Of a stretch of DNA of 64,000 nucleotides, positions 43,944 to 62,323 are shown in pieces. Under the pieces are notes generated by a model. It worked only from the letters and a program-made list of their open reading frames with translations, was not told where the DNA came from and did not search any database. Made by a program: the position numbers and the translations under genes. The stretch comes from Halobacteriovoraceae bacterium (GTDB lineage: Bacteria; Bdellovibrionota; Bacteriovoracia; Bacteriovoracales; Bacteriovoracaceae). Every line of letters starts with the position of its first letter. The first letter of the stretch is position 1. The stretch spans positions 768,001 to 832,000 of the forward strand of contig CAVRCF010000001.1 in NCBI GenBank assembly GCA_963719505.1. The letters are read 5' to 3'.

Positions 43944-45350
43944 TTGATAATGGTGGACTTGAGAGAGTATAAGAGGAAAGCTAAGTTTATAGCCTCCAAA
44001 AATGATACTATCTTCAAAATTTCGAAGTTTGCTTATCATATTTTGCTCAAGGTGAAGTCTCGCCTAAAAGTGAGAAGAAATCTTCGTCTGATAAAAGAGT
44101 ACTTCTTTTCAATAATTTCTGTTTTAAAGCGTATAAAATACAAAGTTAAAAATTCTTTTTATGATAAAGACTTTATCAAATTAAATGAGTCGCCTTTTAA
44201 GTTTTGCGATCCGCATACACAAATATCAAAAAAAACTCACCATGAAATTTTAGATTACTATGAAAAAAATAAATACAGATCAAGAGAGCATACGTTTCGT
44301 AAGTATGGGAAAAAGATAAGGTTCAGGGCCAAAGATATTTCTTCTGAAAACATAGACATATTAGTGTTTCCTGATTATCGGCTAAATAATCCTTACCAAA
44401 AGGACTTATATCTTTTTAATGAAACAACAAAGTATATAAATACTGTCGATGCACTTAAAAATTTCTTGGAAAAAAGAGGATCAGAGAAAAAAGTATTACA
44501 CCTTCACTGGACCTCAAATATTCTTAGAGAACTCGGTTTTGAGAGATTTAAGAAAAGCTTAGATCTTTTTCTTTCTCGGGGTGGGAAGGTTGTCTGGTTT
44601 GTACACAATCTTTACCCTCACGACTCTCAAGATAAATCGGAAGAGAAAAAACTGAGGCTATATATATCTGAGATTTCTTCTAAAGTTGTTGTTTTGGCTG
44701 AAGCTTCAAAGAATAAGGTTATAGATGAATTTCATTGCGACCCAAGCAAGATGACTGTGATCCCTCATCCCAACTATGCTCGTCATTACAACTACCCAGA
44801 TCTAGACTTTTCTGTAAGAGGAAAACAAAACTCTGGAAGAACGAAACTTCTTATAATGGGTTCTATTAAAAAGTATAAGGGAATAAAAGAATTTTTGGAT
44901 GCTTTTGTTTCCTCTGAAGTCATGTCCAAGTTGTGTAGTTTAACAATTGTTGGAAATGCTGATGATGAAACTTATCGACGAGAATTGATGAATTATGGAG
45001 ATGCCTTTAATGTTCATTTTGATTTGCGAATGCTCTCTGATTATGACTTAGCATCCTATCTTAATGAGTGTGACTTCGTTGTTCAAAATTACCTTTGCAC
45101 CCTAAACTCTGGGGTAACCCTCTTGGCACTCTCAAAAAATCGTCCCGTCTTATGTTTGAAGAATGACTCATTCGACTTTCTAATAGAAAATGGAGAGAAT
45201 GGTTTCAAATACGGAAACTTTAGCGAATTAGAAAGTGAGATGGCCAGTCTAGTTAAAAACAAAGAAAAACTAAAACAGAAATCCTTTAAATCTGTTGAGA
45301 TGTACGATTGTGTTCCTCTCTCTCAGCTTAGAGATACTTTAAAGTTGTAA
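43944..45350 (+). CDS. GT4 glycosyltransferase
   Basis: NPYQ, HLHW, VHNLYPH, IPHPNY, YKG, NSGV. Confidence 0.75.
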   Translation: MIMVDLREYKRKAKFIASKNDTIFKISKFAYHILLKVKSRLKVRRNLRLIKEYFFSIISVLKRIKYKVKNSFYDKDFIKLNESPFKFCDPHTQISKKTHHEILDYYEKNKYRSREHTFRKYGKKIRFRAKDISSENIDILVFPDYRLNNPYQKDLYLFNETTKYINTVDALKNFLEKRGSEKKVLHLHWTSNILRELGFERFKKSLDLFLSRGGKVVWFVHNLYPHDSQDKSEEKKLRLYISEISSKVVVLAEASKNKVIDEFHCDPSKMTVIPHPNYARHYNYPDLDFSVRGKQNSGRTKLLIMGSIKKYKGIKEFLDAFVSSEVMSKLCSLTIVGNADDETYRRELMNYGDAFNVHFDLRMLSDYDLASYLNECDFVVQNYLCTLNSGVTLLALSKNRPVLCLKNDSFDFLIENGENGFKYGNFSELESEMASLVKNKEKLKQKSFKSVEMYDCVPLSQLRDTLKL

Positions 45351-45355
45351 CAATT

Positions 45356-46453
45356 ATGAATGAGAAACAAAAAAAAATCTTTGTGACGAGACCTTTTCTT
45401 CCGGCTAGAAAAGAGTATGAAAAGATCTTAGATAGGGTTTGGGATTCATCCTATTTAACAAACTTTGGTCCAATCCTAACAGAGCTAGAAAAAGAAATAA
45501 AGACATACACTGGTGTAGAAAACCTAACGGTATCGAATGGAACCTTTGCATTAAACTTGGCTTACGAATTATTAAAGCTTAAGGGAAAGAAGGTATTAAC
45601 AACACCTTTCTCTTTTATTGCAACGGCATCAACTTTGGCTTGGGATCGGATCGATTTTGACTTCGTAGATATAGATGAGCAAACATACAACATTGATCCG
45701 GTAAAATTAGAGATTCGACTACAAGAAGACGCATCTATTTCGGCAATCGTGGCAACTCATGTGTTTGGTAATCCATGCGACGTAAAAAGAATTGCGGAGA
45801 TCGCAAAGAAATATGATGTGAAAATCATTTATGATGCTGCTCATAGTTTTGGAGTTAAAATTGATGGTGTATCAATCTTTAAATATGGTGATTTAAGTAC
45901 TTGTTCGTACCATGCTACAAAAATCTTTCATACTGTTGAGGGTGGAGCTGTCTTTTCAAATAGTCCAGAGGTTATTCTTAAATTGAAACAGCTCTCAAAC
46001 TTTGGTTATAATCCTAAAGCTGTAATAACTGAAGTAGGTATTAATACAAAGGTTTCTGAGTTCCACGCCTCTATGGGGCTTGCTAATATTAAGCATATTT
46101 CCAACTTGATTGATGAAAGACTTGATATTATAGGTACCTATAAGAGAGAGTTATCTGAGTTAGGTACATTCCAAAAAATAGATGAGAGTGTCAGCTGGAA
46201 TGGGGCATATATGCCAATTTTACTTCCAAGCTCAGCTCATGTTGAAAAGCTTTTTGTGACTTTAGAAGAAAACTTTATTTATCCCAGAAGGTACTTCTAT
46301 CCTAGTTTAGATGAACTTGGAATTTTTAGTGATAAAAGCGCTTGTCCTGTGTCGAGGAATATTGCTTCAAGGATAGTTTGCTTACCTCTGTTTAATAATA
46401 TGAACAAAGATGATCTAAAAAATATAATTGAGTTAATAAAGGTGAGCCAGTGA
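45356..46453 (+). CDS. DegT/DnrJ sugar aminotransferase (VioA-like)
   Basis: TPFSFIAT, YDAAH, SYHATK, RRYFYP. Confidence 0.9.
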   Translation: MNEKQKKIFVTRPFLPARKEYEKILDRVWDSSYLTNFGPILTELEKEIKTYTGVENLTVSNGTFALNLAYELLKLKGKKVLTTPFSFIATASTLAWDRIDFDFVDIDEQTYNIDPVKLEIRLQEDASISAIVATHVFGNPCDVKRIAEIAKKYDVKIIYDAAHSFGVKIDGVSIFKYGDLSTCSYHATKIFHTVEGGAVFSNSPEVILKLKQLSNFGYNPKAVITEVGINTKVSEFHASMGLANIKHISNLIDERLDIIGTYKRELSELGTFQKIDESVSWNGAYMPILLPSSAHVEKLFVTLEENFIYPRRYFYPSLDELGIFSDKSACPVSRNIASRIVCLPLFNNMNKDDLKNIIELIKVSQ

Positions 46454-47061
46454 AGAAGGTAATAATTTTAGGAGCTGGTGGCTTCGCCAGAGAATTACAT
46501 TCATGGATTGATAATGTTGAAGGAGTCGAACTCGTGGGATTTTATGCCGATGTAGATTCAGATAAGAAGCTTAACGATTATAATATCTATTCCGACCTTA
46601 GTGGGCTTAAAGATACAAAGTATGTTCTAGGTGTTGGCGACGTTAATTTAAGACAAAAGTTTGCAGAAATTGCAGAGTCGCAAGGGCTTTCCGCGTGCGA
46701 TCCCTTAGTTCATCCTTCCGTTGTTTTAGGAAAAAATAATAGCCTTGCACAAGGAGTTGTTTTAACTCCCGGATGCATTGTTACAACAAATGTGACACTT
46801 GAAAAAAATGTTATGATTAATATTGGATCCACAGTTGGACACGATTGTACTATCGGGGAGCTTAGTGTCCTTTCTCCTGGGTGCCGAGTCTCAGGAAATG
46901 TGGAGGTCGGTAAGAGATGTGATCTTGGAACAGGATGTTCTATAAGACCAAAGATACATATAGTAAATGATGTCGTGGTGGGGATGAACGCTGCAGTTGT
47001 ATCTAATCTTAATGAAAGCGGTGTCTATATTGGCATTCCCGCCAAAAAGTTAAGCAGGTAA
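46450..47061 (+). CDS. NeuD/PglB/VioB-family sugar N-acetyltransferase
   Basis: GAGGFARE, VGHD, hexapeptide repeats, GIPAK. Confidence 0.88.
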   Translation: MKKVIILGAGGFARELHSWIDNVEGVELVGFYADVDSDKKLNDYNIYSDLSGLKDTKYVLGVGDVNLRQKFAEIAESQGLSACDPLVHPSVVLGKNNSLAQGVVLTPGCIVTTNVTLEKNVMINIGSTVGHDCTIGELSVLSPGCRVSGNVEVGKRCDLGTGCSIRPKIHIVNDVVVGMNAAVVSNLNESGVYIGIPAKKLSR

Positions 47062-47065
47062 GTGA

Positions 47066-48190
47066 GTGCTTAAAATACTTCACATTGTTAAAGATGAAAA
47101 GTTTGTAGATCTTGCAGGTGATTTATTTGAGACAGCTTACCCTGGACAGAACGAATTCTGGTCTTTTCAATCGAGCAAAGACTTTAAATATATTAAAAGA
47201 ACTAAGATTATACAAAGATCACTTCTTTCACTTTTCTCTCTATCATTAAAACAAAAAGTTCAAAAATTTGATTTAATTATTATTCATTGGTTAGGGCCTG
47301 TTGCTTGTATCTTTGTCAATCGATTTTCATTCAAGCCAATAAGTTGGATTGGCTGGGGTGGAGACTATTATGAATTTACGGATATTAAGCTATTAGATGA
47401 TAAGTCGGAAAAATTTGAGAAAGAAATCAAAACGATTTTTTCGTTTTATTATTTGCAAGAAACTGTAAAACAATTAACCTTTTTTACATTAAATCAAATT
47501 GGTTGGGGAAAGAAAAATTCCATTAGAAAAATAAAAACTTTTGCGCCTGTTCTAGAAAATGAGTATTCAAGGGTTAAAAGTTCTTTTGATAAGAGTTACT
47601 TTCCTGAATTTGTCGATTGGAATTATGGGTCTCTAGAAAGACACTTGATCGTTGGTGTTGAAAACAAAGTTGTCAGTGGTGAAAATTTACTTCTTGGAAA
47701 TAGTGCGACCTTAACCAATAACCATCTTACAGCTTTTGATGTGATCAAAGAGGAAAAAACAAGTTTTAACAAATTGATAATACCTTTGAGTTACGGAAAT
47801 GATGTCTATAAAAAAACGATTTCTGACCTTTTTAAAAAAGAGCTAGGAGAGAAGTTTGAATCACTAGACCGATTTATGCCAGTTGATGAGTATTTTCAAA
47901 TAATTCTAAGCTGTAGAATAGTGGTCATGAATCATACTAGGCAGCAGGGGTATGGAAATATTATCGTGGCACTATATTTGGGAGCTTCAGTATATCTAAA
48001 CGATAAAAATCCACTATATGAATATTTAAAAAATAAAGGGTTCAATATATTTAAAATTGAGGACCTCGGTCAAAGCAATACAATCTCTGACGAAATGATT
48101 GAGATCCATAGAGCCTTACTTTCTTCTATTTTTTCAGAAAGTCAGATGCTTTCAAAAACAAAAAACCTTGTTGAGAAGACTTTGACATGA
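47066..48190 (+). CDS. GT56 WecF-like 4-acetamido-deoxyhexose transferase
   Basis: WGGD, LGNSA..NNH, PLSYG, RQQGYGNI. Confidence 0.8.
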   Translation: MLKILHIVKDEKFVDLAGDLFETAYPGQNEFWSFQSSKDFKYIKRTKIIQRSLLSLFSLSLKQKVQKFDLIIIHWLGPVACIFVNRFSFKPISWIGWGGDYYEFTDIKLLDDKSEKFEKEIKTIFSFYYLQETVKQLTFFTLNQIGWGKKNSIRKIKTFAPVLENEYSRVKSSFDKSYFPEFVDWNYGSLERHLIVGVENKVVSGENLLLGNSATLTNNHLTAFDVIKEEKTSFNKLIIPLSYGNDVYKKTISDLFKKELGEKFESLDRFMPVDEYFQIILSCRIVVMNHTRQQGYGNIIVALYLGASVYLNDKNPLYEYLKNKGFNIFKIEDLGQSNTISDEMIEIHRALLSSIFSESQMLSKTKNLVEKTLT

Positions 48191-49632
48191 CTAAACAGCT
48201 AAACGATTCGACATTAAAAGGTATCAGATGGACCACCTTTTCTAGTGTCATAACAGCATTTCTTCACTTATCTCAAATTATTATTCTCTCAAGATTTCTA
48301 ACTAAATCAGAGTTTGGATTAGCTTCTTTATCAATAGTGGTTTTAGGATTTGCTCAAACGTTCGTGGATATGGGGTTTTCAAACGCGATCATTCATAAGC
48401 AGAACTCAAGTGAGTCTCAACTAGGTACTCTTTATTGGATGAATTTCATAGCCGGTATCATAGTTGCAAACATAATATACTTTTCATCTGGCTCTATAGC
48501 GTCGTTCTACAACGAACCTGGTATGGTACCTTTGCTGAAGGTTATTTCGATATGCTTTGTAATTATACCTTTAGGTTTGCAGTTTAAGGTTCTATTCCAA
48601 AGAGACTTGAGGTTTAATTTACTTGCAATACAAGAAACGATCGGTGCTTTGTTTGGTTTTGTGGCAGCTCTGTACTTTGCTATAAATAATTATGGCGCAT
48701 TCAGCATTGTAAATGGCTATCTTTTTAATATTTTGATTACAAATTTTCTATTCCTTACATATGGAGTAAGAAAATACCCTGTAAAACTTGTCTTTAAATT
48801 ATCAGAAGTAAAAGAGTATATAAGATTTGGCATGTTTCAAACTGGTGAAAAGACTATCAATTATTTTAACACTCAGTTTGATGTGATGATTATCGGAAAG
48901 ATTCTTGGAGCTGAAACCGTGGGGGTTTACTCGATTTCAAAACAGCTAGTTTTAAGGCCAGCTCAGGTTATAAACCCTATTGTCACGAGAGTTTCATTTC
49001 CAGTAATGTCAATTCTCCAAAATGATTTAATCCGAATTAAATCAATTTATATGAAAACAATTAATTTTTTGTCATCTGTAAACTTTCCAATCTATCTTGG
49101 AATATTTCTTCTTTCAGAAGAGATAGTACTTCTTTTATTTGGTGAGAATTGGACTCAGGCCATCTCTGTCGTAAAGATTCTTTCCTTATATGCTGCCCTT
49201 CGTTCAACAATTAATCCCATCGGTTCATTGACTCTTGCAATGGGAAGGGTCGATATAGGCTTCTTTTGGAACTTAATTGTTTTTTTTACTCTTCCATTTG
49301 CTGTTTATATTGGGACATTCTTTGGACTCGACGGTGTTTGTTTTGCGTTAGTCATTTACATCCTTCTACTCTTTATCCCTAACTGGCGATTCCAAGTGAG
49401 TGTTTTATGTGGCGCTGGTTTTAGAGAATATCATTTAGAGATTCTGAAGCCTCTTGTATTGACCTTGATTGCTTCTATAGCTCCAATAATATCTCTCTAT
49501 TTTATTGATAATTTATATGTGAGGATTTTAGCAGTATCAATTTTGGGAACAGTATCAGCGGGTATCGTTAATTATTTATTTAACAAGCCTTTTTACAACA
49601 TGATAAAAAAACTTATAAAAAGTACTTCCTAA
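48187..49632 (+). CDS. wzx: MOP/Wzx flippase (WzxC-like)
   Basis: Many TMs; LSRFL..EFG, DMGFSNAIIHK, G.YS. Confidence 0.88.
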   Translation: MTKQLNDSTLKGIRWTTFSSVITAFLHLSQIIILSRFLTKSEFGLASLSIVVLGFAQTFVDMGFSNAIIHKQNSSESQLGTLYWMNFIAGIIVANIIYFSSGSIASFYNEPGMVPLLKVISICFVIIPLGLQFKVLFQRDLRFNLLAIQETIGALFGFVAALYFAINNYGAFSIVNGYLFNILITNFLFLTYGVRKYPVKLVFKLSEVKEYIRFGMFQTGEKTINYFNTQFDVMIIGKILGAETVGVYSISKQLVLRPAQVINPIVTRVSFPVMSILQNDLIRIKSIYMKTINFLSSVNFPIYLGIFLLSEEIVLLLFGENWTQAISVVKILSLYAALRSTINPIGSLTLAMGRVDIGFFWNLIVFFTLPFAVYIGTFFGLDGVCFALVIYILLLFIPNWRFQVSVLCGAGFREYHLEILKPLVLTLIASIAPIISLYFIDNLYVRILAVSILGTVSAGIVNYLFNKPFYNMIKKLIKSTS

Positions 49633-50371
49633 TCCCATGAATAGCATAGCGAAAAAAGTAATAAGCTGATTTTATAAATCCTAGTTTAAACTCATCTCGA
49701 TACAATCCCCATTGAATAACGGCCATTTTCTTTTTATCTGAAGATAAAGAGTCACCGCCAAATATTCTATAACAGCTAAGTTTCTCGTTTAACCCTATAG
49801 CTTCTCTACAAGCTAAAATTGCATCATACCAAAATAAATAATCTTGCCTTCGACGAAGGTGTTCCTTAAACCTGATAGAGTTTAAATCTAATAGGCTTTT
49901 TGAGATCATGATGGAGCTCGTAGCAAAAGGGTTGAACTTTAAAAGATCAGTCGCAGTGTATTTTTGATCGAGAAGTTGCTCTTTTAAGACTTTTCCTTCT
50001 GCGTCAATTGTCCAGTAGTCGTGGTAGGTGAATTCACTTCCTGTTTGCTCCATAAAAGAGATCTGTTTTTGAAGTTTTTGAGATTCCCAAAGATCGTCTA
50101 CATCTAAAAATGCCACGAAATCACCAGTTGCATGGTCTAAGCTTACATTTCTCGTTTTTGCGGCACCGGAGTTTTTCTCATTTTTAATGAGTTTTACTCT
50201 TTGGTCATTTTCCCTTAGTTTCTCAATGATTTCGACAGAGCCGTCAGTTGAGCAGTCATCTGTAATGACCCATTCCCAATTTGAGAAAGTTTGACTCTTA
50301 AGGCTATCATAAGTCTCAGGGATGAACTTTTCAGCATTGAAGCAAGGCGTAATTATCGATACTTTTTTCAT
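49613..50371 (-). CDS. GT2 glycosyltransferase (TuaG-like)
   Basis: VSIITPCFN, DDCSTD, AFLDVDD, RQDY. Confidence 0.88.
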   Translation of the reverse strand: MKKVSIITPCFNAEKFIPETYDSLKSQTFSNWEWVITDDCSTDGSVEIIEKLRENDQRVKLIKNEKNSGAAKTRNVSLDHATGDFVAFLDVDDLWESQKLQKQISFMEQTGSEFTYHDYWTIDAEGKVLKEQLLDQKYTATDLLKFNPFATSSIMISKSLLDLNSIRFKEHLRRRQDYLFWYDAILACREAIGLNEKLSCYRIFGGDSLSSDKKKMAVIQWGLYRDEFKLGFIKSAYYFFRYAIHGIRKYFL

Positions 50372-50440
50372 GTAAACTTCACTCTTTTTTTAGTATAGTC
50401 CCATGATATTTCAAATGAACTATATTGGTAAGGAAATGTT

Positions 50441-51730
50441 TTGAGACGTCGTGTTAAGTCCATTGATTATACCCAAAGAGTTGTAGACCTTTTTATTGTC
50501 TACATCTCGTGGATGTGCGCTTATTTTCTAAGGTTTGAAAATGAAAGTCTGTTTTCTTGGTACGCAAATTACGGCGTGCTTTTGTTTTTAATCTCTTTAC
50601 TCGTTTTTAAAAACTCAAAACTCTACGATGCTCTAAGGTTAACTAATACCTCTAAATTGGCCAGTGCACAGATTAGGGCCAATGCAATATCTCTTGTCGC
50701 TTTCTTAGTAGTGGCTTTCTTTATGTCTCATCACAGAGTTTCAAGAGTGATGCTTGTTGTGTACTTTGCTCTTTCCACATCTCTTCTCGTTTTGAGTAAA
50801 ATTTATTTTAGAAAAGTCATGAACTCAATTAAGCAGAGGATTCTTGTTATTGGAAACGGAGAGCCCGCTAAGAAATATGTTAAAAATATTGAAGAGTATA
50901 AAAATATAGAGATTGTTAATTGGATAGACTCTGTAGAAAGTGTTGATGCCAGTGAGATTGAAAAACTTGAACTCGATGATATCGTGGTGGGTTTTGATGC
51001 TGAGAATGTTAAAGACCAAAAAGAGGTTCTCACAAGACTTTCGGAGTCTATGGTTCCTATTATCGTGCTCCCAGATGTGAGCTTTGCAAAAGTGGGCTAC
51101 ACCATGAGCGATTTTAAGGGGCAACCTTTAATTTATCTCAATGAGCCCAACATAAAGCATTCGGGATTGATCCTCAAAAGACTTTTTGATTTTACCGCTA
51201 CCGTTATAGGTGTGTTTTTAATTTCTCCCATTCTACTTTTTATAGCCGCAGCTATAAAGCTCACAAGCAAAGGCCCAGTTCTTTATCATCAAGTGAGAAT
51301 GGGCGTAGACGGAAAAGAGTTTAAGATGTGGAAGTTTCGCTCCATGGTTACCGGTGAAGCGAATCACGGTGGCTGGACAGTAGAAAATGATCCAAGGGTA
51401 ACAAAGATCGGTCGCATCATTAGAAAAACGAATATAGATGAACTTCCTCAACTTTGGAATGTTATAAAAGGCGACATGAGCCTAGTGGGTCCAAGACCAG
51501 AGAGGCCTCAGTACGTCGATAAATTTAGAACTGAGATCCCAGGCTATATGATTCGCCATAAGTTTAAAGCAGGTGTGACTGGTTGGGCTCAAGTTAACGG
51601 TTGGAGAGGAGATACATCCATTCCCAAAAGAATTGAATGTGATCTTTGGTATATTAAAAACTGGAGTTTCTCTTTGGATATCTCGATTCTTTTTATGACC
51701 TTTTTTAAAGGAAATAAAAATGCTTACTAG
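50441..51730 (+). CDS. Undecaprenyl-phosphate glucose phosphotransferase (WcaJ/WbaP family)
   Basis: KRLFD, KFRSM, DELPQL, SLVGPRPE, GVTGWAQV. Confidence 0.92.
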   Translation: MRRRVKSIDYTQRVVDLFIVYISWMCAYFLRFENESLFSWYANYGVLLFLISLLVFKNSKLYDALRLTNTSKLASAQIRANAISLVAFLVVAFFMSHHRVSRVMLVVYFALSTSLLVLSKIYFRKVMNSIKQRILVIGNGEPAKKYVKNIEEYKNIEIVNWIDSVESVDASEIEKLELDDIVVGFDAENVKDQKEVLTRLSESMVPIIVLPDVSFAKVGYTMSDFKGQPLIYLNEPNIKHSGLILKRLFDFTATVIGVFLISPILLFIAAAIKLTSKGPVLYHQVRMGVDGKEFKMWKFRSMVTGEANHGGWTVENDPRVTKIGRIIRKTNIDELPQLWNVIKGDMSLVGPRPERPQYVDKFRTEIPGYMIRHKFKAGVTGWAQVNGWRGDTSIPKRIECDLWYIKNWSFSLDISILFMTFFKGNKNAY

Positions 51731-52949
51731 CTCTCAAGATAAAACTTTTAAATGGATTATGTGGGCGCTTATGTTTTTGAGTGTGGGCTTTTTATCGAGT
51801 CCAACGATTGTAAGTGTGTACCATATACTCATAGTCATCCCTATGTTTATAGCGATTAAGCGAGCGGATTCATTTCGTATTCCTAAAAGCGGATGGTTTT
51901 TAATAGCCCTCACGGTTTGGGGATTAGTTTGTAATTTTGTAAACTTAGATGAGCTTGTCAAGGTGAGAAAAAGTTTTGATGAATTAAAGTTTTATCTTCT
52001 TGGCCCTCTTTTGATTTATCCTCTTAAGTATTTCTTTGATAGGGCGACGCCTTTTCAGGTGAAAAGAATGTTAAATGCCTTGTACCTCGTTATTATTGTA
52101 GCCCTCATCGTTGGCTGCACCAAAGCTTTTTTTGGCTTCAATCTTTTAAAGATGGAATTTGGTGACTTTAAAAATCGCTCGGATGGCCTGACGAATTATA
52201 TGCGTTACGGCTATGCATCAGCTTTTCTTTTTGTTTTGGGCTCAGGTTTTGTCCTTAAGAGGAAGGAACTTCAAAAGATTTTTAATCCAAGATTCTTTTA
52301 TATCGCTCTTTCACTTTGTTTCTTTGCTGTTCTTGCAGCTAAGACTCGTGGAGCGCTTCTTGGAATTATCGTTGGATGTTCATTTTTAATGCTTAAATTT
52401 AAACCAAAGCTTGGTAAGGTCTTGGTGGGGTTTGGAGCCTTCTTTATTGCAGTCGTTATATTTATCTCCTTTACAGGAATCAAAACCAACTCGAGATTTT
52501 TTAATATCAAAGATGGCTCTAATAAAAAGAGAATGAGCCAGTTCTATACTGCTGTAAAATCAATTGGGGAAAAGCCAGTCTTTGGACTTGGAGCTTCTCA
52601 GTTTTCTTATCACGTTACAAAACTAAAGATAAAGTACGATATATGGTCGAAAGAGTATTCCGGGCATTCTCATAATATCTTTCTTGAACATGCAGCAAAT
52701 TATGGGATTCCAGGTCTTATTTTATTCTTGGGCTTCTTAGCCTTTTGGGGGATGGAGCTTTTTCAAAGAGGAGACTTTGGATGGGTTCTTTTATCTTATC
52801 TTGTGGCCTTTACCGTCTCTGGTCAGGTAGAAAATCTATTTGATAATACGAATTCACATTTATTATTTTTTATATATCCATTGAGCTTTATTAAATTTAA
52901 AGACTACTCGAAGAACTTAGATAAATTTAAAACGAGCCAAAAGATATAA
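51720..52949 (+). CDS. O-antigen ligase family (WaaL/Wzy_C)
   Basis: TRGA, KPVFGLG, HSHNIFL..GIPG; multiple TMs. Confidence 0.85.
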   Translation: MLTSSQDKTFKWIMWALMFLSVGFLSSPTIVSVYHILIVIPMFIAIKRADSFRIPKSGWFLIALTVWGLVCNFVNLDELVKVRKSFDELKFYLLGPLLIYPLKYFFDRATPFQVKRMLNALYLVIIVALIVGCTKAFFGFNLLKMEFGDFKNRSDGLTNYMRYGYASAFLFVLGSGFVLKRKELQKIFNPRFFYIALSLCFFAVLAAKTRGALLGIIVGCSFLMLKFKPKLGKVLVGFGAFFIAVVIFISFTGIKTNSRFFNIKDGSNKKRMSQFYTAVKSIGEKPVFGLGASQFSYHVTKLKIKYDIWSKEYSGHSHNIFLEHAANYGIPGLILFLGFLAFWGMELFQRGDFGWVLLSYLVAFTVSGQVENLFDNTNSHLLFFIYPLSFIKFKDYSKNLDKFKTSQKI

Positions 52950-53049
52950 TCATTTATACCTTGGTCTCAGATTAACTAACATATTTTCAATAGTTTAGCT
53001 GCATCAGCTTCATATTTTACTTGCATAAGACTCCATAAGGAGATGACTT

Positions 53050-53313
53050 ATGCCGGCAATATCAATGTTTTTTGGAATTATTATCAAAATGTATTATCGT
53101 GAACACAATCCACCTCATCTCCATGCTTACTATCAAGGATTTGAAGCAAGCTTTAGCATAGTTACAGGAGATAAAATTATAGGGAATTTTCCTATAAAAG
53201 CTGATAGAATTGTTTCCGATTGGATACAAGTGTATAAAGTCGAGTTAAGTAATAATTGGGAGTTAATGAGAGACAGTAAACCTCTTCTTCGTATCCCTGG
53301 AGCTGACCAATGA
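53050..53313 (+). CDS. DUF4160 family protein (putative toxin)
   Basis: MPAISMFFGIIIKMY.REHNPPHLHA. Confidence 0.88.
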   Translation: MPAISMFFGIIIKMYYREHNPPHLHAYYQGFEASFSIVTGDKIIGNFPIKADRIVSDWIQVYKVELSNNWELMRDSKPLLRIPGADQ

Positions 53314-53558
53314 AAAATATAATTAGAGTTGAAGCTTTTGAGTACTATCTTGAGTGTGAAATGGATAACGGAGATATTTTTAGATTTGATATGTCATTTG
53401 TTCTTAGTAGTGAAGGGGAGATGCTTCAAGCTCTAAAAGATAAATCTTTTTTTAAAAAAGTATTTATAGAAATGGGCGCGATTACTTGGCCCAACGGCTA
53501 TGATATACATGCTGACACTATTATAGCTGATGGTGAGTTAATAAAGAGTGCATCTTAA
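53310..53558 (+). CDS. DUF2442 family protein (putative antitoxin)
   Basis: LKD..FFKKV...GAITWPNGYDI; ATGA overlap with DUF4160. Confidence 0.85.
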   Translation: MKNIIRVEAFEYYLECEMDNGDIFRFDMSFVLSSEGEMLQALKDKSFFKKVFIEMGAITWPNGYDIHADTIIADGELIKSAS

Positions 53559-53584
53559 AATATTAATATAACAAAGGATTAAAC

Positions 53585-54898
53585 ATGAAAATATCAGTAA
53601 TAGGAACAGGCTATGTAGGCTTGGTCACAGGAACTTGTTTTGCCGAAATGGGAAACAAAATAACATGCATCGATATCGATGCTTCTAAAGTTGAGAGCAT
53701 GAAAGCTGGAAAGTGTCCGATCTATGAGCCGGGTCTTGAGCCAATGATGCAAAGAAACTTTGAAGAGGGACGTCTTCAATTTTCAACATCTAATGAATCA
53801 ATTAAAGATTCTGCAGCAGTATTTATGGCCGTGGGAACTCCAAGTGGAGATGATGGATCTGCCGATCTGCAATACGTTTATAAAGCTCTCGATGATCTTA
53901 TTCCTATGATCACAGATGGACTTATTGTGGTTTTAAAATCCACAGTGCCTATTGGAACTGGTGAAAACGTTAAAAAATATCTTAGTGAAAAAACTTCAAA
54001 GAAGGTCGTCGTTGTGAATAACCCTGAATTTTTAAAAGAGGGTTCCGCTGTCCAAGATTTTATGAAACCGGAAAGAGTTATCATTGGAACGGATGATGAC
54101 AAAGCTTGGAGTGTAATGGAAGAGTTATACGAGCCGTTTAACCGTCTAAGTGGAAGAACAATTCGAATGAGTAATCTTTCTGCTGAGATGACTAAATATG
54201 CGGCGAACTGCTTTCTTGCCACAAAAATATCTTTCATGAATGAGATAGCAAGGCTTTGTGATAAAACAGGTGCAGATGTGACTGAGGTTCGCCACGGAAT
54301 TTCAACGGATTCAAGAATTGGGATGCAGTTTTTATACCCGGGACCAGGATACGGTGGATCTTGTTTTCCAAAAGATGTTAAGGCCCTGGCCTATACAGCG
54401 AAACAGCACGGTATGACGCTTAAGCTGGTGGAAACAACAGAAGAAGTAAATGCTGAGCAAAAACTTTATATGTTTGAAAAAATGAAAAATCATTTTGGAG
54501 ATCTTAAAGGAAAGACCATTGCTATTTGGGGAGTTGCCTTTAAAGCGAATACTGATGATATCAGAGAGACCCCCGCAATCTATACTGTTAAGGCCCTAAA
54601 CGAAGCTGGAGCAAAGGTGAGATTCTTTGATCCTGTGGCCGATGATAACTTTGAAATTTATGCCAAAGAGAATTCTTTTGACGCGGTAAAAGTTGAAAAT
54701 AAGTATGACTGTCTCGATGGTGCAGATGCCCTTTGTGTTCTGACTGAGTGGAAAGAGTTTAGAGCTCCTGATTTTGATGAGATGAAATCAAGACTTAAAG
54801 CCCCACTGGTTTTTGATGGTCGAAACCTTTATAAGACCAGTCATATGCTGGAAGATGGATTTACTTATTATGCGGTAGGGAAGAGAATTAACAAATAA
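53585..54898 (+). CDS. ugd: UDP-glucose 6-dehydrogenase
   Basis: GTGYVG, KSTV, NPEFLKEG, GYGGSCFPKD. Confidence 0.95.
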   Translation: MKISVIGTGYVGLVTGTCFAEMGNKITCIDIDASKVESMKAGKCPIYEPGLEPMMQRNFEEGRLQFSTSNESIKDSAAVFMAVGTPSGDDGSADLQYVYKALDDLIPMITDGLIVVLKSTVPIGTGENVKKYLSEKTSKKVVVVNNPEFLKEGSAVQDFMKPERVIIGTDDDKAWSVMEELYEPFNRLSGRTIRMSNLSAEMTKYAANCFLATKISFMNEIARLCDKTGADVTEVRHGISTDSRIGMQFLYPGPGYGGSCFPKDVKALAYTAKQHGMTLKLVETTEEVNAEQKLYMFEKMKNHFGDLKGKTIAIWGVAFKANTDDIRETPAIYTVKALNEAGAKVRFFDPVADDNFEIYAKENSFDAVKVENKYDCLDGADALCVLTEWKEFRAPDFDEMKSRLKAPLVFDGRNLYKTSHMLEDGFTYYAVGKRINK

Positions 54899-54960: not shown

Positions 54961-54985
54961 AGGCCAGATATACTCTGGCCTTTTT
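54961..54985 (+). terminator. Intrinsic terminator after ugd
   Basis: AGGCCAGA-TATAC-TCTGGCCT followed by TTTT. Confidence 0.65.
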
Positions 54986-54990
54986 ATTGC
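54976..54990 (+). promoter_or_regulatory. Candidate sigma54 promoter overlapping the terminator
   Basis: TGGCCTTTTTATTGC: GG-N10-GC spacing, 36 nt before ATG 55027. Confidence 0.55.
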
Positions 54991-55026
54991 TTAAACCTTT
55001 GGATACAAAACAACAAAGGGGAAACG

Positions 55027-58008
55027 ATGAAAAAGTTAATAACGACAAGTCTCATTATGCTGAGTGTATTCAGCTGTGGACAAAAGGGCGATTCAGGTCA
55101 ATCTGATTCCGTGCTTACTCAAAATCTAGAAGAGGCATCAGGCAACAAACCAAACTATTCACATCTTGATCTTTATAGTTTTAGTAATAATCTAAAAAAG
55201 CCACTTAAAGCTGATCTCAGATACATGCAGTATCAAGATCGAAAGAGTAAGGGCGTTGAGAGTCTTAATCATATCTCTCCTGAAGGAGGAATAAAAGATG
55301 TCTCGATTAGTGGTCTTAAAGTTATTATCAAAAAAGATGACCCCCAAGGCTTATATAAAAAGCTCTATCAAAGATCTGATCTTAAAAGCCTCTCAATTGA
55401 TGCCGAAACTATTGAGATTCATGATCCCATTCATCTCGCACAAACGGATATTACTCTCACAGCGAAAAAAATTATCTTCATAGGAGCGGGCTCTATTAAT
55501 ACGACACCTCTTGATTCAATAGCTCTGAGAGCACCTCAGTTTAAAGATGGTGTCGATGGCTTAGATGCAGGATCTATTTACGTGCATGCCGATGAGATTG
55601 TAGAGGATAAGAAGAGCGTGAGATTTATTGCCAATGGTGGTAAAGGTCAGGGAGCCGGACCTGGACAAGCTGGAAGAAGAGGGACCAATGCCGTTTTAAA
55701 ACACGGATACTACAAGTACACAAGTCATGTCTGTCATCCAGGAACAAATACGAATATTTGTTTTGATGAAGTAGAGCGAGGGAGTCCTTCTGGAAATGGC
55801 CAAAATGCCATTGTTGGTGGGAAGCCAGGAGAGGGAGGACAAGCCGGGAAGATATATATAAATAAGAACTTTAGTATCGCCGCAACTCAAACCGGAGGTG
55901 TGGCAGGAAACACAGATTCTTTGCGACTTGGTGGTGCTCCTGGTTCGCCGGTGACGACTTGTGCAGCAAAGTTTAAACGTAGAAGAGTGAGGTCCTATGA
56001 TTGTATAACAGCGATTGGAGGCGCTTCAGCGATGCCAATAAAGGCAAAGAGACCTTGGGCTTTTGATAAAAAAATTCAGATTAAAAGAACAAAAGCTTCT
56101 TGGATAAGTTCTGCTATTACACCTTTTCAATATAAATATATCGAGGACCTTTATAAGGCCGGTTATCTTAGTTCATCACAAAGTGAAATCTCGAGCTTAA
56201 AAAATACTATCACAAAAAATGTAACAGGAATGGAGACGAAGGCTTTGCAGCAAAAGCTTACAAAGCTATCTAATCAGATGGATATGCGACTGGATTTTTA
56301 TGGAAATAAAAAAACCTGGGTTCCAAACCTTGGCTTTGAAGTTAACTATATGCTTTTTAAAAATGAAGTAAAAAGAAATATTGAAGTTCTCTATCTGGCC
56401 AACTCTATGTCTATTGATCTTGAAAAAGAACAGATGAATATTCAAACGATTAAGGAGCTTCAAAGTGAACTCTTTGAAAATATCGATGCCGAGAAAAAAG
56501 AAATTGATAAAACAATTGATGATATCGTTGCAACCAATGAGGCGCTTGGAGAATTAAAGACGGCTGAAGAGGAATTTCACTATCAGTTAAAGGAAGTTGA
56601 AAGACAAATTAAAGCGAAGGCCAAAAGAAATATAAAAGTGCCTTTTATGGATAAAGCCGTAAAGGTTTTTGCAGCAGCTTCCAAAGTAATTCCTGTAGGA
56701 CAGCCGGCTCTTGGTGCTGTTGGGATGGGAGTTGAATTTTTCCACAATGCCACAAATGGAAGTATGAGCGCCGGTGAAATCCTTCAACAAGCTCCTTCAA
56801 TGTATGGACAATTCCAAGAACTCGACTGGAAGGCCACGACAAAAGAGATTCATGAAAAACTGGATGAACTGTCTTTATCTCATCTTGAGGGAATGGACTC
56901 TTGGGAAGAGAGAGGAAAGCATTTAAAAAAGATCGTTGATTTTTCAAGCCCAGTTTTTAAAGCTGTTGCCAGTCAGATGAGTCAGTGGAAAGAGATGGAG
57001 GGAGGATCAAAGCTTGATCGTGAAATCGCAAAAATAAAAAGCTCTCATAAAATGTACAGAAAAGTTATTGAAGCTCTAGAGAACTTAAATTTAAAGAAGA
57101 CACTTTTTAAAGACCGAGTGATCGATTTTCAAAGCTCTATGTCAGATGCTTTGACATCTATTACTGTTAATTACTCAGCACTGGCCTATTCATTTGAGGA
57201 TATTGAAACCATTAGTATTGAGAGAAAAAGAGATTATATGAGTGCACTTGATGAAGTTAAAAGCCTCGCCTCAAAATCTCTTCACTATTATGGGTATCTT
57301 CTTGAAAAGTCTTATGAGTATCGCCTGCTAAAGGACTATAAAAGTAAATTTAACCTAGATATTTTAACGGATGAGATTTTAAATTTAATTAAAACCGGAG
57401 CTGGAAATAGCGTGAATAATATTGAGTCTCTTGAAGTGATCTATAATGCTAAGCTGACTGAGATTACCAACGAACTTTTACACGTTTACAATGATAGTAG
57501 CGCCGCTCAAACCATGTCTAAAGAAGTCAGCCTCACTGTGGAGGAGATCAACTCCCTCAATAATGGTCAAGCGATCTATCTGGATACCACACAAGCAAAC
57601 TTCTTTGGAGAAGATAAAGAGAATATTAGGCTGCTTGACCTAGAGGTAGAGTCTATAAAAAGTAGTGGTACTCATGCACAAATTGAAGTTTCAATGAGTC
57701 ATAGTGGAAGATCGGTGATCGATCAAAACTCTGTAAACTTTGTCTTTGACTTTCATCATCCGAAAACAAATTCTGCTCTCAACTGGAGATCGGTCTATAA
57801 CCCTTGGGCAAATACCTATTATCACTCTGAAATAAGTGCTAATGATGAGTCCCTTCTTAGAAATCTGCTAGATTTGGACTCAGGAAATAGTCAGCTCTTT
57901 ATCAGTCCTGGAGCGAGGACCTTTATCAAAGTCGAGCTCAATAAGAGCGAACAAACAAAGATTAACTCGATGCGTATTAGGATGGATTATTCATACAGAA
58001 TTAAGTAA
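55027..58008 (+). CDS. 993-aa lipoprotein: Gly-rich region, coiled coils, hydrophobic hairpin; TcA-like C-terminal half suspected
   Basis: Lipobox VFSC; GxxG-rich segment; LDFYGNKKTWVP; VIPVGQPALGAVGMG; SYEY; terminal beta-rich domain. Confidence 0.7.
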   Translation: MKKLITTSLIMLSVFSCGQKGDSGQSDSVLTQNLEEASGNKPNYSHLDLYSFSNNLKKPLKADLRYMQYQDRKSKGVESLNHISPEGGIKDVSISGLKVIIKKDDPQGLYKKLYQRSDLKSLSIDAETIEIHDPIHLAQTDITLTAKKIIFIGAGSINTTPLDSIALRAPQFKDGVDGLDAGSIYVHADEIVEDKKSVRFIANGGKGQGAGPGQAGRRGTNAVLKHGYYKYTSHVCHPGTNTNICFDEVERGSPSGNGQNAIVGGKPGEGGQAGKIYINKNFSIAATQTGGVAGNTDSLRLGGAPGSPVTTCAAKFKRRRVRSYDCITAIGGASAMPIKAKRPWAFDKKIQIKRTKASWISSAITPFQYKYIEDLYKAGYLSSSQSEISSLKNTITKNVTGMETKALQQKLTKLSNQMDMRLDFYGNKKTWVPNLGFEVNYMLFKNEVKRNIEVLYLANSMSIDLEKEQMNIQTIKELQSELFENIDAEKKEIDKTIDDIVATNEALGELKTAEEEFHYQLKEVERQIKAKAKRNIKVPFMDKAVKVFAAASKVIPVGQPALGAVGMGVEFFHNATNGSMSAGEILQQAPSMYGQFQELDWKATTKEIHEKLDELSLSHLEGMDSWEERGKHLKKIVDFSSPVFKAVASQMSQWKEMEGGSKLDREIAKIKSSHKMYRKVIEALENLNLKKTLFKDRVIDFQSSMSDALTSITVNYSALAYSFEDIETISIERKRDYMSALDEVKSLASKSLHYYGYLLEKSYEYRLLKDYKSKFNLDILTDEILNLIKTGAGNSVNNIESLEVIYNAKLTEITNELLHVYNDSSAAQTMSKEVSLTVEEINSLNNGQAIYLDTTQANFFGEDKENIRLLDLEVESIKSSGTHAQIEVSMSHSGRSVIDQNSVNFVFDFHHPKTNSALNWRSVYNPWANTYYHSEISANDESLLRNLLDLDSGNSQLFISPGARTFIKVELNKSEQTKINSMRIRMDYSYRIK

Positions 58009-58014
58009 GGTTGG

Positions 58015-58038
58015 GTCCCACAAACGTGGGGCTTTTTT
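58015..58038 (+). terminator. Intrinsic terminator
   Basis: GTCCCAC-AAAC-GTGGGGC followed by TTTTTT. Confidence 0.75.
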
Positions 58039-61123: not shown

Positions 61124-62323
61124 ATGAAAATTTTAATTTTACTTATTCCCTTTTTCGCTTTTGGATCTGTTACTCAGAACAATTATCCCTGGGCAATACA
61201 TTGTTAAGGGGTCTCAGTTTATTGTCGGTCAAAAGCTTCGAGATCTTGGAGACGATGTCTTTTTAATTAAAACCAAAGATAAGATTAAAGTTGATAATAT
61301 AAATGTCTTTTATAATTTCCAATATAGTGGAGAGTTTAAAGAATCAAAGATTGAATCCACTAAAAGTAATGATGCTCTATTGGGGGATCAAAAACACCAT
61401 CTTATGATCAAATCCCTTGAGGCTTGGAAGATTAGTCAGGGCAGTAAGAAAGATTATTGTTGCTGTTACGGATAATGAATTTGAAATGGATCACGATGAT
61501 TTAAAACATGCGTGGTGGAAAAATGAAAAAGAGATCCCTGGCAATGGAATCGATGACGATCAAAATGGATACGTTGACGATATTAATGGATGGGATTTTG
61601 TCACACAAGATAACGATCCCAATGTTGAAGAGGGACCAACTCATGGAACTCATGTCTCTGGAATTATTGCCGCTTCTTTAAATAATAAAATTGGCGTGGC
61701 CGGAATCGCACCAAATGTTTCGATTATGCCCCTTCGTTGGTACGGGGATGAGAGAAGTTGGAATACCGCTTTGGTGGTTGAGACTTATCGCTATGCCATT
61801 GAAAATGGAGCGAATATTATTAATACAAGTTATAATATCGATCCTTTAGTTGAGGATCCCGCTTATCTTAGACGTGATTCAATACGCGAAAAAAAATGAA
61901 GTCATTATTTTTAATTCTGCTGGAAATGATTATAAAAAAGATCCTCCCAGAGGTGTTGTCAAAGATATTGTTTTGGTTTGCTCTGTCAGAAGTTCTAAAG
62001 AGAGACATTTTGATAAGAAATCGAATTTTTCAAATTATGGTTCTGAAATAGATGTCTGCGCTCCAGGTGATCCTATTCTTTCAACAGTTCAGCGACGCTA
62101 TCTTGGGGAGAGTCGCTACGGTGAGCTTGAAGGCACCTCAATGTCCTCTCCAGTTGCTGCGGCAGTGGCGGCCTTAATTTGGTCTCACTTTCCAGAACTC
62201 ACGGCGTCTGGGGTGGTGAGGAAACTTTTAGATTCAGCTGATAATATAGATGAAAAAAATAAACGTAAATATAAAGGAATGCTTGGAAGCGGAAGAGTGA
62301 ATGCTCTGGAAGCTTTGAGATAG
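61124..62323 (+). CDS. S8 subtilisin-like serine protease, split by about 3 frameshifts
   Basis: VAVTD, GNGIDDDQNGYVDD, HGTHVSG, GTSMSSP across ORFs 61161/61417/61850; signal peptide from ATG 61124. Confidence 0.85.

Follow-up and report, generated by a model that had tools for sequence, protein, structure and literature searches.

A predicted lipoprotein of a Halobacteriovoraceae bacterium whose modelled C-terminal module resembles the pore and TcB-binding domains of Tc toxin A

The window analyzed here is a stretch of 64,000 nucleotides from the genome of a Halobacteriovoraceae bacterium (contig CAVRCF010000001.1, positions 768,001 to 832,000), and the gene in question, P0001, lies on its forward strand. 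Structural modelling suggested that the rear 570 residues of the encoded protein share the pore and cap architecture of Tc toxin A (TcA) subunits, which is the most economical reading of the predicted fold. In the interpretation that we favor, for which the chances seem about evenly balanced, P0001 is a stand-alone lipoprotein with a TcA-like pore module and without B and C subunits. It would consist of two modules, namely an N-terminal β-solenoid with a glycine-rich polyglycine-II-like bundle, and a 570-residue C-terminal module in which a long hairpin of helices, hydrophobic and conserved at its tip, is joined to a β-sandwich cap equivalent to the TcB-binding domain. The initial annotation of this DNA, made from the sequence alone, had proposed a monocistronic lipoprotein of about 1000 aa with TcA-like pore architecture. 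The sequence features that it described were all found at the positions given, and the parts of the gene are listed below.

55027-58008, + strand: coding sequence of P0001, 993 aa, member of a large unannotated family
55027-55077, + strand: predicted lipoprotein signal peptide and lipobox with Cys17, read from the sequence
55144-56112, + strand: predicted N-terminal β-solenoid domain, residues 40-362, within which the segment of the next line lies
55537-56046, + strand: Gly-rich polyglycine-II-like segment, residues ~171-340
56113-56295, + strand: three-helix connector, residues 363-423, from the secondary structure of the model, ending in a conserved LDYFGN..W.P motif
56296-57495, + strand: region of long helices, residues 424-823, matching the pore-forming (channel) domain of TcA in the Foldseek alignment and by the YenA2 domain borders (PMC6486591)
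56632-56751, + strand: conserved hydrophobic hairpin tip, residues 536-575, with the core KVIPVGQPALG, from conservation and hydropathy
57496-58005, + strand: C-terminal β-sandwich, residues 824-993, matching the TcB-binding domain of TcA in the structural alignment

Predicted structure of the C-terminal module

The AlphaFold2 model of the P0001 monomer, for which an alignment of 65 sequences (A1) was used, had a mean pLDDT of 81.7 and a pTM of 0.79. In it, residues ~48-355 formed a β-rich domain, 363-423 a three-helix connector, 437-823 a long helical region, and 828-992 a β-sandwich. Comparison of the model with the PDB using Foldseek, a check that the initial annotation had proposed, gave 23 matches at E<=1e-3, with the TcA channel and TcB-binding domains ranking top. 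The 21 listed rows with E values from 3.3e-12 to 4.6e-6 were all TcA subunits, covering prepore and pore states (YenA2, XptA2, TcdA1, XptA1, TcdA4, and TcaA-TcaB), and the next row was an axonemal protein with an E value of 9e-4, which is higher by over two orders of magnitude. The TcA alignments began at about residue 424 of P0001 and ran to the C-termini of both proteins. PMC6486591 places the linker of YenA2 at residues 813-861, the pore helices at 862-1170, the TcB-binding β-sandwich at 1171-1343, and the tip residues at L990/H996; by these borders, the structural match spanned exactly the pore and TcB-binding module. Counted from where the aligned pore region begins, the hairpin tip followed after ~128 residues in P0001 and YenA2 alike, and the β-sandwich comprised 169 aa in P0001 and 173 aa in YenA2. 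The very long helix pair with a conserved hydrophobic tip loop, which is a feature of the TcA pore domain, was also found in the predicted structure of P0001.

The hydrophobic hairpin pointed out in the initial annotation (residues ~543-571) contained the top hydropathy windows of the mature protein and was conserved in 65/65 aligned homologues. The two outcomes by which the initial annotation could have been refuted, namely a lack of structural matches and a hairpin not conserved in homologues, did not occur. Its region was the most conserved one of P0001 (regional value 0.48), and residues 558-568 at the tip formed the sole internal stretch of very low confidence in the model. Conservation across the family was also found in the β-sandwich, where W920 was invariant and R868 and F907 were nearly so, and in the connector region, where D423, G426, and P433 were invariant or nearly so. 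The motifs that had been read as echoes of TcA C-terminal patterns were present as KSYEY (761), ENIR (865), PGA (961), and RMDY (985), and their order and distance from the C-terminus were similar to those in TcA. In the hhalign comparison, ENIRLLDLEV was set against RRIKxVSV, the PGA region against FEG, and MRIRMDYSY against ILHIRYT, but this was a single insignificant alignment, which gives the echoes no statistical weight.

In a language-model feature search with residues 424-993, two clusters carrying PF18276 (TcA_TcB_BD) appeared at ranks 2-3 with scores of 0.86 and 0.85, sharing 178 and 173 of 256 features; these scores were under the 0.9 mark of the search and are taken as a lead only. 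Complex prediction with two copies of residues 424-823 gave no verdict (score 0.00).

Search for Tc partner genes

The genome of the bacterium (3.69 Mb in 5 contigs, 83.5% complete) contained a single copy of the P0001 family, and no match to TcdB_toxin_midN, SpvB, or RHS_repeat (PF12256, PF03534, PF05593) was found at this completeness. The direct neighbors of P0001 encode a UDP-glucose dehydrogenase upstream and a pyridoxal phosphate (PLP) decarboxylase downstream, and a Tc-related family was found in none of the 57 neighbor proteins scanned at 7 loci. The stand-alone status of the gene, with no adjacent TcB or TcC gene, agreed with what the initial annotation had stated. Genes around the homologues were then compared by clustering in 16 locus sets, in 14 of which the family gene was detected. 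No Tc partner gene (TcB, TcC, or RHS) was found next to these 14 homologous loci, and the sole neighbor common beyond one synteny group was an S8 subtilase, located 1-3 genes downstream at 7/14 loci of two related groups. The genetic association with TcB and TcC genes that is typical of TcA was thus not seen at P0001 within the genome and loci searched. Among three other genomes holding the family, one, a metagenome-assembled genome (MAG) of 'Bdellovibrio sp.' with the member at G219:C28:71657-74995 (L029), had an unlinked open frame of 1855 aa on another contig with a weak match to TcdB_toxin_midN (E 4.2e-5, 24.3 bits; 27.2 with neighbors).

N-terminal glycine-rich domain

When residues 40-362 were modelled alone, the pLDDT was 93.1. 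This model had no Foldseek match in the PDB at E<=1e-3, and no TcA chain was among the matches listed. The Gly-rich segment described in the initial annotation was recovered, with a Gly content of 17.5% in residues 170-340 versus 6.6% overall, and the spacing of Gly with a period of 3 was modestly enriched (22 versus 14.9 +/- 3.3; reached by 51/2000 shuffles). The segment was modelled with very high confidence without helix or strand, and it superposed on the entire polyproline-II bundle of the snow-flea antifreeze protein, a rare fold, with a root mean square deviation of 1.9 Å over 78/81 residues and a score below significance. Compared with polyglycine/polyproline-II bundles such as this protein and the receptor-binding tip of phage gp38, for which the scores were below significance, the segment of P0001 is predicted to be embedded in a larger β-solenoid. 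The β-helices of two-partner-secretion proteins and adhesins (EtpA, HMW1, FHA) were also counted among the closest known systems.

Among viral structures (BFVD), the best match of the N-terminal domain was an uncharacterized metagenomic mimivirus protein of 1032 aa (E 7.9e-9, 296 columns, 20% identity), a length equal to that of the P0001 family, and the next was a DUF7932 protein of Terrestrivirus (E 1.1e-3). These may be family members in giant-virus bins. In viral contigs, 0/81 pattern matches were confirmed.

Signal peptide and location

The N-terminus of P0001, MKKLITTSLIMLSVFSC-GQ, contained a KK n-region, a hydrophobic core, and then the lipobox LSVFSC17. With this signal peptide and lipobox Cys, the open reading frame of 993 aa bears out the annotation as a gene for a bacterial lipoprotein of about 1000 aa, in which lipidation is predicted. 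Cys17 was invariant in an alignment of 18 sequences (A3), as were Cys312 and Cys326, and the lipobox regular expression matched 48/65 aligned homologues, with at least two of the misses being lipobox-like by eye. The invariant Cys17, Cys312, and Cys326, together with the accessory domains of the relatives, point to an extracytoplasmic location of the family, probably at the cell surface or secreted.

Family and distribution

No Pfam, NCBIfam, or PDB sequence match was found for P0001, and the sequence or profile matches that P0001 and the family profile gave in these databases (best EmrA, E 0.004) were rejected as coiled-coil noise. A word-indexed search returned 7 proteins including P0001, and an exhaustive search covering 1.84 billion representatives of clusters at 50% identity returned 863 representatives at E<=1e-3, of which 674 reached E<=1e-10 and 347 reached E<=1e-30. 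Family members, where named in their sources, were called 'hypothetical protein' or 'Lipoprotein'. The literature searched contained no paper on the family or on TcA-like proteins in predators, and the family is previously unnamed; the mentions of a Tc toxin and of Bdellovibrio in a CASP15 paper concerned unrelated targets.

Many members were 1200-2900 aa long, and 16/24 long relatives scanned carried accessory domains outside the core, of kinds that bind or anchor extracellularly, including LamG-like, PKD, CBM, Kelch, NHL, dockerin, cohesin, CarboxypepD_reg, PASTA, PEP-CTERM, and β-helix domains, with a Tc-related family in none of the 24. The relative P0007 ended in a type IX secretion system (T9SS) sorting domain. 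The close relatives came from Bacteriovoracaceae/Halobacteriovoraceae MAGs, the 'Bdellovibrio sp.' MAG, and one Pedobacter. The distribution is patchy: the family gene was present in 4/40 relatives' genomes (4/24 inside the bacterium's own taxonomic family and 0/16 outside), in 4/200 sampled genomes of the phylum (4/35 in its own taxonomic family and 0/165 across 27 other families), and in 1/200 sampled genomes of the phylum of Pedobacter. The full-length match of one homologue (G018:C10:980835-983936) reads through one in-frame TAA, which could point to a gene no longer intact or to an error in the sequencing.

Gene surroundings and upstream element

The following elements were found at the ends of the gene.

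54961-54981, + strand: terminator-like hairpin at the end of the UDP-glucose dehydrogenase gene that precedes P0001, 8-bp stem with 5 GC pairs, T-run
54976-54990, + strand: putative sigma-54-like -24/-12 element TGGCCT-N5-TTGC (TGGCCTTTTTATTGC), 51 nt before the ATG, overlapping the 3' arm of the terminator
58013-58034, + strand: terminator-like hairpin past the stop codon of P0001, 9-bp stem with 5 GC pairs, T-run

A ribosome-binding site, AGGGG, was present 5 nt upstream of the ATG. The intergenic gaps of 128 and 110 nt and the flanking hairpins fit a monocistronic unit, in line with the initial annotation, which had also noted the terminators. The number of terminator-like hairpins in the region was near chance (3 found versus 2.5 expected from shuffles), so that their position at gene ends is the sole informative aspect and is suggestive.

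The GG-N10-GC site of the annotation was located as well, within the sigma-54-like element listed above. TGGC-N7-TTGC occurred 3 times in the window versus 1.1 expected, a number reached by 9/100 shuffles and not above chance. It was found at a similar upstream distance in 3/8 family loci inspected, namely in the window, ~46 nt upstream of the G006 homologue, and ~55 nt upstream of the G003 homologue (the two further sites being L007 8139-8153 and L005 1086-1100, the latter on the - strand), and the full motif was not found upstream of the five other homologues inspected. With rpoN found in the genome, the element is considered a lead to a putative sigma-54-like promoter. Among sequencing runs, no RNA data set containing the gene was listed.

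P0001 lies between a polysaccharide/O-antigen-type cluster on one side and, on the other, the PLP decarboxylase gene, a gene for an M64-like peptidase, and an S8 gene that is broken. The cluster, directly 5' of P0001 at 43944-54898, contained genes for GT4, a DegT aminotransferase, a PglD-like acetyltransferase, a GT56-like protein, a Wzx-type flippase, GT2, Bac_transf, Wzy_C, and the UDP-glucose dehydrogenase. The UDP-glucose dehydrogenase gene was separated from the Wzy_C-type O-antigen ligase-like gene by a pair of small DUF4160/DUF2442 genes (53050-53558, + strand; 87 and 82 aa, with a 4-nt overlap). The M64 (IgA peptidase-like) protein, encoded two genes 3' of P0001 (59525-61120, + strand), had an N-terminal signal-like sequence, and the position of its gene was kept in the closest relatives (loci L030-L032). 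The S8 subtilase gene (61161-62323, + strand) was split across three reading frames by frameshifts near 61440 and 61871, and its orthologue in the same metagenome loci was intact, with 399 aa.

Discussion

The TcA resemblance of P0001 is one of predicted monomer fold only, and several results weigh against assigning the protein to TcA. A scan of 44 family proteins (P0001 and 43 others) at E<=1 gave no match to the Pfam families of Tc toxins, among them PF18276, and no sequence-level link between P0001 and TcA was obtained, the Pfam, NCBIfam, and PDB sequence searches being empty. When the whole family was compared by hhalign with 12 natural TcA C-termini (SepA of pADAP and 11 others from plasmids, with 25-78% identity), the result was not significant (E 0.1, probability 0.6%), and the E values of 0.025-0.8 obtained with trimmed profiles, or with profiles enlarged to 152-156 sequences, did not improve on those of reversed-profile controls. 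The values bearing on the TcB-binding domain were 0.1-0.2, again no improvement on the controls. On its ascending side, the helical region had ~90 residues more than that of YenA2. The model showed neither the shell of TcA nor its neuraminidase-like and receptor-binding domains or its stretched linker, and P0001 had no VRP1 or neuraminidase-like Pfam match. In PMC6795518 and PMC6486591, the linker of TcA is described as stretched and unstructured, with ~47-49 residues and a trefoil knot at its base; P0001 has the three-helix connector 363-423 in its place, although strain in a linker would not be visible in a prediction of the monomer. Of the TcA-like pore architecture claimed in the initial annotation, the predicted fold match was therefore upheld, and the profile comparison, the PF18276 search, and the missing shell and receptor-binding domains did not support it. 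The likeness in fold may reflect homology with TcA.

Part of this evidence could also be read as an α-pore-forming module of the ClyA/Hbl/AhlB type. The monomer model packed residues 481-723 as a four-helix bundle and not as an extended hairpin, and in an unfiltered structure search, a designed four-helix bundle and toxins of the AhlB/Hbl type ranked level with TcA. This bundle with its hydrophobic head would unfold at the membrane and oligomerize like the tripartite toxins, with the β-sandwich as an unrelated accessory and the TcA likeness as convergence. Such an explanation appears improbable, since no ClyA-family chain was among the 50 Foldseek rows listed, which the 21 TcA rows lead, and no HBL or ClyA Pfam match was found in P0001 and the relatives scanned. 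The tripartite and ClyA-family toxins (AhlB, Hbl-B/L1, XaxB) lack both the C-terminal β-sandwich, which in P0001 aligns together with the helices to TcA until the end of the chain, and the N-terminal solenoid, and no adjacent paralogous partner genes of the tripartite kind were present at the P0001 loci. Somewhat more weight, within what is still unlikely, is given to a surface or envelope protein that forms no pore (an adhesin, stalk, or structural lipoprotein), in which the helices would be a spacer, the hydrophobic segment a buried core or protein contact, and the TcA match a generic arrangement of long helices and a jelly roll. The steep drop in the Foldseek ranking after the TcA rows, the colinearity of both domains in TcA order with the tip at the matching position, and the peak of conservation on a hydrophobic loop containing Pro and Gly, which is unusual for a spacer, all speak against it.

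The least probable of the alternatives is a TcA-like translocon that still delivers cargo, in which an unrecognized non-TcB partner encoded elsewhere would dock on the β-sandwich. In its favor, the TcB-binding-like β-sandwich was retained and conserved across the family in the residues named above, and the 1855-aa frame was found in the 'Bdellovibrio sp.' genome. The lack of TcdB_toxin_midN, SpvB, and RHS_repeat matches in the genome at its given completeness, and of any conserved partner gene across the 14 loci except the S8 protease in two related synteny groups, makes it quite doubtful.

Compared with the TcA subunits (TcdA1, XptA1/2, TcdA4, TcaA-TcaB, YenA2, SepA), P0001 has in its model a similar pore hairpin of helices, whose hydrophobic tip loop is conserved, and a terminal β-sandwich of the same size, the two aligned as one unit, and the order of the C-terminal motifs is colinear. 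In contrast, TcA has ~2400 aa and P0001 ~1000 aa, the α-helical shell with its neuraminidase-like and receptor-binding domains in TcA is replaced in P0001 by a lipobox and a β-solenoid/polyglycine-II N-terminus, and TcA occurs with TcB/TcC, which were absent from the genome and neighborhood searched here. The P0001 family was found in Bacteriovoracaceae-type and Bacteroidota genomes, whereas Tc loci are reported mostly for Proteobacteria and Firmicutes (PMC7861908).

In the mechanism that seems most likely by analogy with TcA, several copies of a stand-alone, TcA-like P0001 would assemble, with their helical hairpins forming a channel and the conserved hydrophobic tip inserting into the target membrane. 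The N-terminal domain and, in relatives, the fused domains of the lectin-like, PKD, or dockerin type may serve in attachment or in shielding of the tip, and the N-terminal solenoid/polyglycine-II domain or the added binding domains of relatives would replace the TcA shell. Since the cocoon formed by TcB and TcC is missing, P0001 would act as a plain membrane-perforating or permeabilizing device rather than as a toxin injector. TcAs form functional pores alone, according to PMC6795518.

A further-reaching proposal, which we regard as tentative and clearly below even chances, is that P0001 represents the first recognized 'mini-TcA', a widespread family (863 clusters) with the channel and cap only, the shell replaced by a solenoid, and neither a B nor a C subunit, being either an ancestral form of the ABC toxins or a stripped-down derivative. 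In the predatory Bacteriovoracaceae, it might then be a surface-tethered device that perforates the envelope of prey or competitors on contact. Tc toxins serve as a model of how proteins are translocated in a syringe-like manner. To our knowledge, the TcA channel has so far been known only inside a three-component toxin, mostly from Proteobacteria and Firmicutes. If the resemblance to TcA were only generic, the family would still be notable for pairing a hydrophobic hairpin that is strongly conserved with an unusual, glycine-rich domain of the polyglycine-II-like kind. If a family with the channel and cap in another domain context does exist, it would bear on the evolutionary assembly of the Tc machine, provide a compact and tractable model for a helical pore, and give a function to hundreds of 'hypothetical' surface proteins, some of them in bacterial predators.

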